A program made the position numbers and the translations under genes. Below the pieces are notes generated by a model, which was not told the origin of the DNA, made no database searches, and was given only the letters and a program-made list of their open reading frames with translations. A DNA stretch of 64,000 nucleotides from Bacillota bacterium (GTDB lineage Bacteria > Bacillota > Clostridia > Ch29): the NCBI GenBank assembly GCA_013540605.1, contig JABVCK010000002.1, forward strand, positions 32,339 through 96,338, written 5' to 3'. Position 1 is the first letter of the stretch. Every line of letters starts with the position of its first letter. This document shows, in pieces, positions 56,742-57,843 of this stretch.

Positions 56742-57011
56742 CTACATTACCAGCCTGACCAGAGGATTTGCAAAAAGAAGTATCAGGGCTATAATAAGGC
56801 CGTAGATGCCGGTGGTTTCCGCAACCGCCGCACCCAGCAGCATGGTCCTGACAATATCCCCCTGGGCCTCCGGCTGTCTTCCTACCGCCTCAGCGCCCTT
56901 TCCCGCCGCATAGCCCTGGCCTATACCCGGGCCAATCCCCGCAATCATCGCCAATCCCGCTCCAATGGCGGATGCGGCGAGTACCAGTGCTTTACCTGTA
57001 ATGGGTTCCAT
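56742..57011 (-). CDS. atpE: ATP synthase Fo c subunit (single hairpin) with Na+-type signature
   Basis: Start ATG after GAGGAGG; [84 protein letters not shown]; Q in helix 1 and ETTGIY in helix 2. Confidence 0.9.
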
Positions 57012-57033
57012 ACATATATTCCTCCTCAATTAA

Positions 57034-57843
57034 TTACTTCAGCAGCCCCAGCAGGGGGTTGGCAAACATCAGCAGCAGCGCTATTATTAAGGCATATATG
57101 CCTGTCGTCTGTGCCACCGCCTGTCCCAGGAACATAACCCGGGTTATCATACCCTGGTGCCCCGGCCTCTTCCCGATCGCCTCCACCGCCTTCCCCGCAG
57201 CAACACCCTGGCCTATGCCGGGCCCGATGCCGGCAATCATCGCAAACCCCGCTCCGATGGCAGATGCGGCCAGAATAATCCACAACCCTTCATCCGCACC
57301 CAGGGGGTTTGCAAAAATCAGTATGAGGGATACCACGAGGGCCAGTATTGTTGAAGTCTCAGCCACCGCTCCGCCCAGAAGAAGGGCAAAGGTCACGTTT
57401 TTCCTTGCTTCCGGGTTAACCCCAACAGCTTCTGCCGCCTTCCCCGCAGCATAACCCTGCCCCAGTGCGGGACCTATACCCGCCACCATTGCTATACCTG
57501 CCCCTATGGCGGAAGCGGCAAGCACCATCTTCGCGCCGTTTACCCCGACCAGTGGATTCCCGAACAGGAGAATCAAAGCCACGATCAGCGCCAGAATACC
57601 CGATGTCTCCGAAATCGCCGCACCCAGCAGCATGGTAAAGGTTATTTGCTTGCCTTCCTCAGGCTTTTCCCCCACTGCCTCCGCTGCTTCACCCGCAGCA
57701 AACCCCTGGCCTATGCCGGGGCCGATCCCCGCAATCATCGCAAACCCGGCGCCTATGGCGGAGGCCGCCAGGACAAGGGCTTTTTTGTCGAAGGAATTAA
57801 GCCATTCTATCAAGCGGACAATGAAATTTCCGGTGGAATCCAT
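57034..57843 (-). CDS. Fused triple-hairpin Fo c subunit (three tandem c-subunit repeats; third hairpin E->Q)
   Basis: Start ATG (MDSTGN) after AAAGGAG; repeats: …[20 protein letters not shown]…[15 protein letters not shown]… / …[20 protein letters not shown]…[15 protein letters not shown]… / …[20 protein letters not shown]…[15 protein letters not shown]…. Confidence 0.85.

Follow-up and report, generated by a model that had tools for sequence, protein, structure and literature searches.

A three-hairpin c subunit with two carboxylates encoded beside a conventional c subunit in an F-type ATP synthase operon

The number of ion sites in the c-ring fixes the ion/ATP ratio of an ATP synthase and with it the minimum membrane potential for ATP synthesis, a central quantity for life close to the thermodynamic limit. 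Among natural F-type rings with a silenced site, to our knowledge just that of Acetobacterium woodii has been characterised structurally. A stretch of 64,000 nucleotides from a Bacillota bacterium (Clostridia, Ch29; assembly GCA_013540605.1, contig JABVCK010000002.1, positions 32,339 to 96,338), analysed here as a whole and called the window, carries an atp operon in which a protein of 269 residues with three c-subunit hairpins in one chain is encoded directly before a conventional c subunit of 89 residues. Is the long gene genuine, and what kind of rotor would its product build? Our analysis indicates that it probably encodes a genuine one-chain rotor subunit of a Na+-coupled F1FO ATP synthase, an orthologue of A. 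woodii c1 with an inserted hairpin, which would work in a mixed ring.

The Pfam family ATP-synt_C matches three stretches of the 269-residue protein (E = 5.7e-41) and one of the 89-residue protein; the three-hairpin pattern is far beyond chance. The four hairpins, three fused and one free, are units of 83 residues that align without any gap (Table 1). A first inspection of the letters and open reading frames (ORFs), the sequence-only reading, had described three complete hairpins in one polypeptide, an E/E/Q pattern with its quoted motifs ([27 protein letters not shown]) and an adjacent conventional c subunit, and all of these are present. The carboxylate position is encoded by GAG in hairpin 1 (E79, 57607-57609) and hairpin 2 (E162, 57358-57360) and by CAG in hairpin 3 (Q245, 57109-57111), where Gln stands in place of the carboxylate and is invariant in 21 homologues. 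Hairpin 2, the extra one, is similar to hairpin 1, keeps the carboxylate and has a VNP loop (loop entry [13 protein letters not shown]). The hairpins are preceded by an N-terminal extension, common to the fused subunit and A. woodii c1 and absent from the single-hairpin c; its W14 is nearly invariant in the alignment of 21 homologous sequences. The fused gene (stop codon included in the coordinates) starts with ATG, with an AAAGGAG ribosome-binding site 8 nt upstream. This start is used by the gene calls on identical DNA and by all homologues; the mechanical ORF list begins at GTG 57870, overlapping the stop codon of atpB. The gene of the 89-residue protein begins 22 nt downstream of the fused gene and has its own ribosome-binding site (GAGGAGG). 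Its product shows a complete Na+ motif (Q...ETT..Y, with the Glu in AETTGIY) and the canonical RQP loop.

The ion sites were compared at the positions equivalent to Q32/E65/S66/T67/Y70 of the Ilyobacter tartaricus ring. The monomer c has Q/E/T/T/Y at these positions, hairpins 1 and 2 have Q/E/T/S with Leu at the position of Tyr70, and hairpin 3 has Q/Q/T/T/Y. The roles of the I. tartaricus Na+ ligands are summarised in PMC2359735. The minimal conserved Na+ motif is given as 'Q....ET' (PMC7911925); hairpins 1 and 2 carry it, as does the monomer c.

The operon is F-type, with a complete subunit set including delta/OSCP. All genes lie on the minus strand in the order atpZ-atpI-atpB-c3-c-atpF-atpH(OSCP)-atpA-atpG-atpD-atpC, and this content is why N-, V- and A-type assignments are rejected; Pfam content and gene order bear out the sequence-only reading, which had called the enzyme F-type and neither V/A- nor N-type. 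An N-type ATPase is ruled out by the presence of OSCP and by a gene order that is F-type rather than atpDCQRBEFAG. A profile for AtpR gives a weak match below the cut-off, beneath the match to AtpI. Scanning the operon for promoter and terminator consensus sequences gave nothing interpretable. The epsilon subunit consists of the N-terminal β-sandwich domain alone and is devoid of the C-terminal two-helix domain, an inhibitor of ATP hydrolysis in many bacteria.

The fusion could be imagined as a pseudogene or artefact in which tandem atpE paralogues were merged by an assembly or sequencing error, or in which the true start is Met106, and one public annotation (P0122, GCA_030017455.1) does hold the last 164 residues alone. 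We regard this as extremely unlikely. The DNA copies of the four hairpins are just 62-76% identical to one another, which excludes a collapsed or chimeric assembly of near-identical repeats. No stop codon or frameshift separates the repeats in the window or in two further loci, each with two synonymous substitutions: L002 (SRR9855028), from a different strain that is 96% identical upstream, and L084 (GCA_030017455.1), with the full 269-codon ORF in frame and stop-free. A fourth copy, L001 (SRR6186653), matches 7.8 kb of the window at 100% identity and possibly shares its source data. The short annotation, MDI6706408.1 (L084 1653-2147), begins at Met106 although the 105 upstream codons (315 nt) are intact and in frame on the same contig; Met106 has no good Shine-Dalgarno sequence, while AAAGGAG precedes Met1. 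The short call is an annotation truncation, and multi-hairpin c genes may be systematically mis-called. GenBank MBA1334061.1, from a 'Firmicutes bacterium' metagenome-assembled genome (MAG) and located on a 183-kb contig, is identical to the window protein and bears a generic name.

Selection was estimated from a protein-guided codon alignment with the orthologues L003 (82% amino acid identity) and L004 (73%). Synonymous divergence (dS) is 1.4-2.0, near saturation, and the ratio of nonsynonymous to synonymous divergence (dN/dS) is 0.11 overall and 0.08-0.14 per hairpin (hairpin 2: 0.13), with the frame unbroken through both linkers. These values point to purifying selection on all three hairpins. 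A megablast search of the operon against L003 and L004 gave no match. Twenty homologues, down to 63% identity, are colinear over all 269 columns and almost gap-free, and proteins with the EEQ pattern (one letter for the carboxylate position of each hairpin) form twelve clusters at 90% identity. An assembly artefact of three tandem atpE paralogues, a doubt that the sequence-only reading had itself raised, is not compatible with 20 colinear homologues and a dN/dS of about 0.1. The artefact, the pseudogene and the Met106 start are rejected on repeat divergence, intact ORFs elsewhere and the selection data.

The best match to the fused protein in the PDB is A. woodii c1 (4BEM_J, E = 2.3e-54), which the sequence-only reading had named as the nearest characterised relative. 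All 14 PDB sequence matches are F-type c subunits, the best being 4BEM_J, 1YCE, 4BEM_A and 3ZK1. Residues 6-148 align with c1 6-148 without a gap, through the N-terminal extension and hairpin 1, across the linker and along the first helix of the hairpin that follows, and residues 232-265 align with c1 149-182, the last helix (AVAQTTGIY). As the alignment resumes at c1 149, the window protein corresponds to c1 with an insertion of 83 residues, the equivalent of one hairpin. The first linker has the exact length of the crystallographic c1 linker that joins adjacent ring positions; the second keeps the 83-residue period. Hairpin 1 is closest to hairpin 1 of EQ proteins (mean identity 73%) and hairpin 3 to their last hairpin (75%). 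Hairpin 2 is closest to hairpins of the first type (65%) and less similar to the last hairpin or to the middle hairpin of EQQ proteins (60%). ETS followed by a residue other than Tyr marks hairpins 1 and 2, and QTTGIY with a KRP loop marks hairpin 3; an xNP loop occurs in hairpin 2 and in hairpin 1 of c1, whereas window hairpin 1 has EKP. Against A. woodii c2/3, whose sequence was taken from the PDB match alignment, the monomer c shows 81% identity.

By these alignments the fused protein is an orthologue of A. woodii c1 with one added hairpin and extends the two-hairpin hybrid rotor. The A. woodii system (c1 = AtpE1, 182 residues; 4BEM) has the same operon order, with a multi-hairpin c gene followed by single-hairpin c, the same Q...ETS in hairpin 1 with a residue other than Tyr at the Tyr70 position, the same Q...QTTGIY in the last hairpin and the same linker length. 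It differs in that c1 has two hairpins and one carboxylate, while the window protein has three hairpins (six helices) and two carboxylates, with 2/3 rather than 1/2 active sites per hairpin. A. woodii also has two monomer genes against one in the window, and the shortened epsilon subunit is a further difference. The fused subunit does not fit the definition of a 'V-type' c1, with two hairpins (four transmembrane helices) and one ion site. Both the A. woodii and the Clostridium aceticum c1/c2 systems are experimentally Na+-dependent (PMC7911925; PMC9171764).

An AlphaFold2 (AF2) model built from the 21-sequence alignment shows a short N-terminal helix, six long helices and disordered linkers at residues 94-102 and 178-185. 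Of this model, the secondary structure alone was used. The top Foldseek match was 4BEM_J, and superposing single hairpins on 1YCE and 4BEM_A gave 1.6-2.2 Å; among solved structures the search returned no F-type c subunit with three hairpins.

The A. woodii ring comprises nine c2/3 and one c1, giving 11 hairpins and 10 Na+ sites (PMC9171764; PMC7793690). By analogy, we propose co-assembly of the fused subunit with the single-hairpin c in one hetero-oligomeric ring, in which the three fused hairpins would fill three neighbouring positions. Hairpins 1 and 2 would each form a working Na+ site, Gln and Glu coming from the hairpin itself and the Thr hydroxyl and a backbone carbonyl from its neighbour; they are proposed as normal sites because all ligand positions but Tyr are present. 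The hairpin with Gln245 would be a position that passes the Arg of the a subunit without an ion. If k fused subunits were built into a ring of N hairpins, N-k sites would be left. For N = 11, one copy would leave 10 sites (3.3 Na+/ATP, as in A. woodii), two copies 9 (3.0) and three copies 8 (2.7). The lowered ion/ATP ratio expected by the sequence-only reading would accordingly be found relative to a homomeric ring, and not necessarily relative to the A. woodii hybrid if k = 1. The fusion may also nucleate ring assembly.

Several points weigh against this proposal. The Tyr70 position is taken by Leu in hairpins 1 and 2 (Phe in hairpin 1 of A. woodii c1), and hairpin 2 has Ala for Gly within the GxGxGxG packing motif, so the geometry of the sites and the local curvature could be different. 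Confidence in the AF2 model is low to moderate (predicted local distance difference test score, pLDDT, 65), and its inter-hairpin arrangement is unreliable. Ring size, copy number and co-assembly with the monomer are taken over from A. woodii by analogy. All EEQ members found come from uncultured material (MAGs or metagenomes). A ring with a single copy would have the ion/ATP ratio of A. woodii, and the selective value of an extra active hairpin would go unexplained; this live hairpin possibly serves ring nucleation or size control, or is an evolutionary intermediate toward EQQ. As to the packing motif, the Ala is at the position of I. tartaricus G29 (GIGPALGQG; 57457-57477, minus strand, residues 123-129), which is G or A among EEQ homologues. 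Substitutions of this kind alter c-ring size in ring-engineering work.

Two rival explanations were weighed. The fusion could be a device for assembly or ring size, nucleating the ring with AtpI as a single copy with one dead site, its extra hairpin being bioenergetically neutral. A. woodii c1 has been reported as required for ring assembly. The N-terminal extension with W14 is conserved in fused subunits only, atpI and atpZ are conserved upstream, the site count for k = 1 equals that of A. woodii, and hairpin number varies from 2 to 5 among close relatives, as if weakly constrained. The patterns EQQ, EQQQ and EQQQQ argue otherwise: there the added hairpins are systematically silenced, so that the number of sites shifts even in a ring with a single copy, a pattern that suggests selection on stoichiometry. 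The Glu of hairpin 2 and the Na+ motif around it are also conserved across the EEQ clade of the window. We hold this explanation to be unlikely. Alternatively, fused and single-hairpin c might form separate rings, giving two ATP synthase populations with different Na+/ATP ratios between which relative expression would select (for instance four fusions, with 12 hairpins and 8 sites, against a homomeric c11). Multi-hairpin subunits of V/A-type enzymes form homomeric rings, and the two c genes have separate ribosome-binding sites. An insertion of 61 nt between the c genes, present in the sister strains L002 (2205-2287) and L084 (from ~2148) and absent from the window (57012-57033), could uncouple their expression; the L002 copy of the insertion forms a strong stem-loop on folding (-32.7 kcal/mol, z = -3.2) and could shift the relative expression of the two rotor subunits. 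Yet the fused gene almost never occurs without a monomer gene directly downstream, and the non-canonical cytoplasmic loops of the fused hairpins (EKP/VNP/KRP, where the monomer has RQP) are like the loops of A. woodii c1, which is a minority component. 4BEM, the one relative with a solved structure, is a mixed ring of one c1 and nine c2/3 (PMC9171764). We consider separate rings quite unlikely, and a mixed ring is the arrangement we prefer.

The EEQ architecture is not unique to the window genome, and relatives with fusions of two to five hairpins are found in the databases. We dissected the hairpin patterns of the 120 best database homologues, counted as clusters at 90% identity: EQ (29 clusters), EQQ (23), EQEQ (15), EQQQQ (15), EQQQ (14), EEQ (12), EQQQE (5), EQEEQ (2) and ETQ (2). 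Glu occupies the first hairpin in almost all members of this series, and the last hairpin is a Gln hairpin of the QTTY type in every group except EQQQE. An alignment-based scan of species-representative genomes gave 79 loci. The A. woodii type, 2[EQ]+1[E], accounts for 37 of them and about a dozen have three hairpins; EEQ occurs in two species only (L003 and L004, both MAGs), and there are single examples of 4[EQQQ], 4[EQEQ]+1+1 (an uncultured Acetobacterium) and 5[EQQQQ]. A single-hairpin, Glu-bearing c gene lies downstream in 54 of 59 loci with a fused gene, and wherever the flank suffices, atpB is upstream and atpH(OSCP)/atpA downstream. A single-protein scan of the genome collection returned no relative, and the window species is apparently absent from the GTDB representatives. 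Cultured organisms with three or four hairpins are Alkalibacter rhizosphaerae, A. mobilis, Crassaminicella indica, Clostridiaceae bacterium 35-E11 and Alkalibaculum sp. M08DMB. In these organisms the extra hairpins are silent, and the proteins carry the plain annotation 'F0 subunit C'.

The first and last hairpins are shared by the window protein and by the EQQ (Alkalibacter rhizosphaerae, Crassaminicella indica), EQQQ (Alkalibaculum sp. M08DMB), EQEQ and EQQQQ (gut and other MAGs) forms. Most relatives have lost the carboxylate in the added middle hairpins, whereas the window class retains it. In a neighbour-joining tree of the first and last hairpins (166 columns, no support values), the EEQ group of the window (8 clusters) is one clade, and other EEQ and multi-hairpin forms are scattered among EQ lineages. 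The pattern suggests repeated hairpin expansions.

Further arrangements were seen at single loci. Candidatus Brocadiaceae MAGs, of the anammox family, encode a three-hairpin c (E, T, Q) and a monomer c (L057 3031-4034 and L060 3016-4020); the three-hairpin gene is flanked by atpB on one side and atpH/atpA on the other, and its product shares 38-41% identity with the window protein. Loci L082 and L083 (5648-9743) hold an FO-only operon, atpZ-atpI-atpB-c(5 hairpins)-c-b-b', from a distant lineage that is probably Gram-negative because the contig carries PagL. In hairpin 1 of its fused c, the Gln32 position is taken by Glu, which makes a two-carboxylate motif like that of Fusobacterium nucleatum; the remaining four hairpins carry Gln at the carboxylate position. 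In a Marinisporobacter MAG (L015 3058-6499), an orphan 3[EQQ] gene is located just upstream of a complete atpZ-I-B-2[EQ]-1[E] operon. Two tandem 2[EQ] genes followed by a monomer gene occur in L026 (3058-4393) and L051 (2375-3785). The exhaustive search of representatives also returned many distant c-like proteins (P0144-P0286; 28-48% identical, 3-12 hairpins) with varied patterns (EQE, EQED, EEE and all-E 10-12-mers).

Outside the F-type, the closest architectural parallel is the A1AO proteolipid of Methanocaldococcus jannaschii, with three fused hairpins (six helices) and reportedly, after Ruppert et al. 1999, two ion-translocating carboxylates. Unlike the window protein, it is part of an A-type enzyme encoded in an A/V-type operon, and its ring is homomeric, without a companion single-hairpin subunit. 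The two proteins agree in the number of hairpins and carboxylates, but the window protein is F-type by its operon and by its sequence affinity; judged by these, the likeness is convergent architecture and the fusion event is not homologous. NtpK of Enterococcus hirae and the A1AO c subunit of Eubacterium limosum are likewise multi-hairpin with fewer ion sites than hairpins, but have two hairpins with one site within a four-helix bundle and form homomeric rings in another enzyme class. For such V/A-type subunits the proposed effect is a lower ion/ATP ratio (PMC9171764). Engineered fusions (Escherichia coli c2/c3; Bacillus PS3 single-chain c10, PMC8809890) indicate that short periplasmic linkers are compatible with a working ring; these are laboratory constructs, while the window fusion is natural, conserved and has a silenced site.

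Our literature search found no description of an F-type c subunit with at least three hairpins, although a 2015 review of hybrid-rotor distribution (Brandt & Mueller, Biol Chem 396:1031) might list some. A two-hairpin F-type c1 is described for C. aceticum, as for A. woodii (PMC7911925). A triplicated proteolipid is mentioned for methanogens only (Mulkidjanian et al. 2008, PMC2359735), and 1, 2, 3 or 13 hairpins are listed for archaeal enzymes only (PMC9171764, 2022). By the comparisons above, the EEQ subunit is real, conserved and public under generic names, and apparently uncharacterised.

The EEQ form might, more tentatively, be one state in a widespread and seemingly undescribed modular series that sets Na+/ATP stepwise from about 3.3 to about 2.3, with EEQ as a 'duplicated but not yet silenced' intermediate; we think this possible and would not yet favour it. 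Such a series would comprise two to five fused hairpins with one to three surviving carboxylates, almost all accompanied, in the loci covered here, by a single-hairpin c. Clostridia could then tune the Na+/ATP ratio of F-type enzymes, as could, independently, anammox bacteria and some Gram-negative lineages, and natural F-type enzymes would replay the route of duplication and subsequent loss long proposed for the origin of the V-type proteolipid. The three-hairpin subunit itself shows that hairpin multiplication in F-type rotors goes beyond one duplication and that duplication and carboxylate loss are separable steps; in a mixed ring, composition would be newly constrained (N = 3k + m). Together with EQQ, EQQQ, EQEQ and EQQQQ, EEQ offers a natural panel for relating site count to the threshold of ATP synthesis and possibly a guide to the gearing of ATP synthases in acetogens for gas fermentation. 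There is also a lesson for annotation, as pipelines name such proteins 'F0 subunit C' and at least one was truncated to a familiar length.

Table 1. Genes of the atp operon and segments of the fused c subunit (window coordinates)
Feature	Coordinates	Strand	Remarks
atpZ-like small membrane protein (ATPase_gene1)	58909..59136	-	first gene of the operon; PF09527, 5.4e-17
atpI (assembly factor family)	58540..58902	-	ATP-synt_I, 1.2e-13
atpB (a subunit, stator)	57867..58550	-	ATP-synt_A, 3.6e-51; conserved Arg in [13 protein letters not shown]
Fused c subunit gene (atpE1-like), 269 aa	57034..57843	-	N-terminal extension and three hairpins; three ATP-synt_C stretches
N-terminal extension, residues 1-20	57784..57843	-	conserved W14; predicted short helix 7-16
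Hairpin 1, residues 21-103	57535..57783	-	Q46 / E79-T80-S81 / L84; loop EKP
Hairpin 2 (extra), residues 104-186	57286..57534	-	Q129 / E162-T163-S164 / L167
Hairpin 3, residues 187-269	57037..57285	-	Q212 / Q245-T246-T247 / Y250; loop KRP
Single-hairpin c gene (atpE2-like), 89 aa	56742..57011	-	conventional; one ATP-synt_C
atpF (b subunit)	56220..56717	-	ATP-synt_B, 7.2e-20
atpH (delta/OSCP)	55645..56223	-	OSCP, 5.3e-46; marker of F-type versus N-, A- and V-type
atpA (alpha)	54108..55667	-	Pfam ATP-synt_ab
atpG (gamma)	53297..54184	-	PF00231; 295 aa in the mechanical ORF, 286 aa in the gene call on identical DNA
atpD (beta)	51872..53278	-	ORF and gene call on identical DNA
atpC (epsilon), 89 aa	51601..51870	-	PF02823 only

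The sequence-only reading had supposed an energy-limited anaerobe; what the gene content shows of the host is a motile (flagellated), spore-forming Firmicute with a G+C content of 48%. Genes for a SpoIID-like protein and SpoIIT flank the atp operon, and flagellar genes (fliD, flagellin, flgK) are located at 3364-11201 (minus strand). Divergent from the operon, at 59431-63186 (plus strand), are a dCache/HAMP histidine kinase and a response regulator of the sigma-54 type (AAA+); the kinase adjoins the operon on the identical contig L001 too. Elsewhere in the window are a raiA RNA motif (184 bits, 2203-2407, minus strand) and an S-adenosylmethionine (SAM) riboswitch (34353-34460, minus strand) that lies upstream of metK (32928-34154). 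Five tRNA genes are clustered at 35119-36487 (minus strand). The window further encodes a molybdopterin oxidoreductase of 688 aa (45243-47309, plus strand) and a protein of 1153 aa with a Cu_amine_oxidN1 domain (22719-26180, minus strand).

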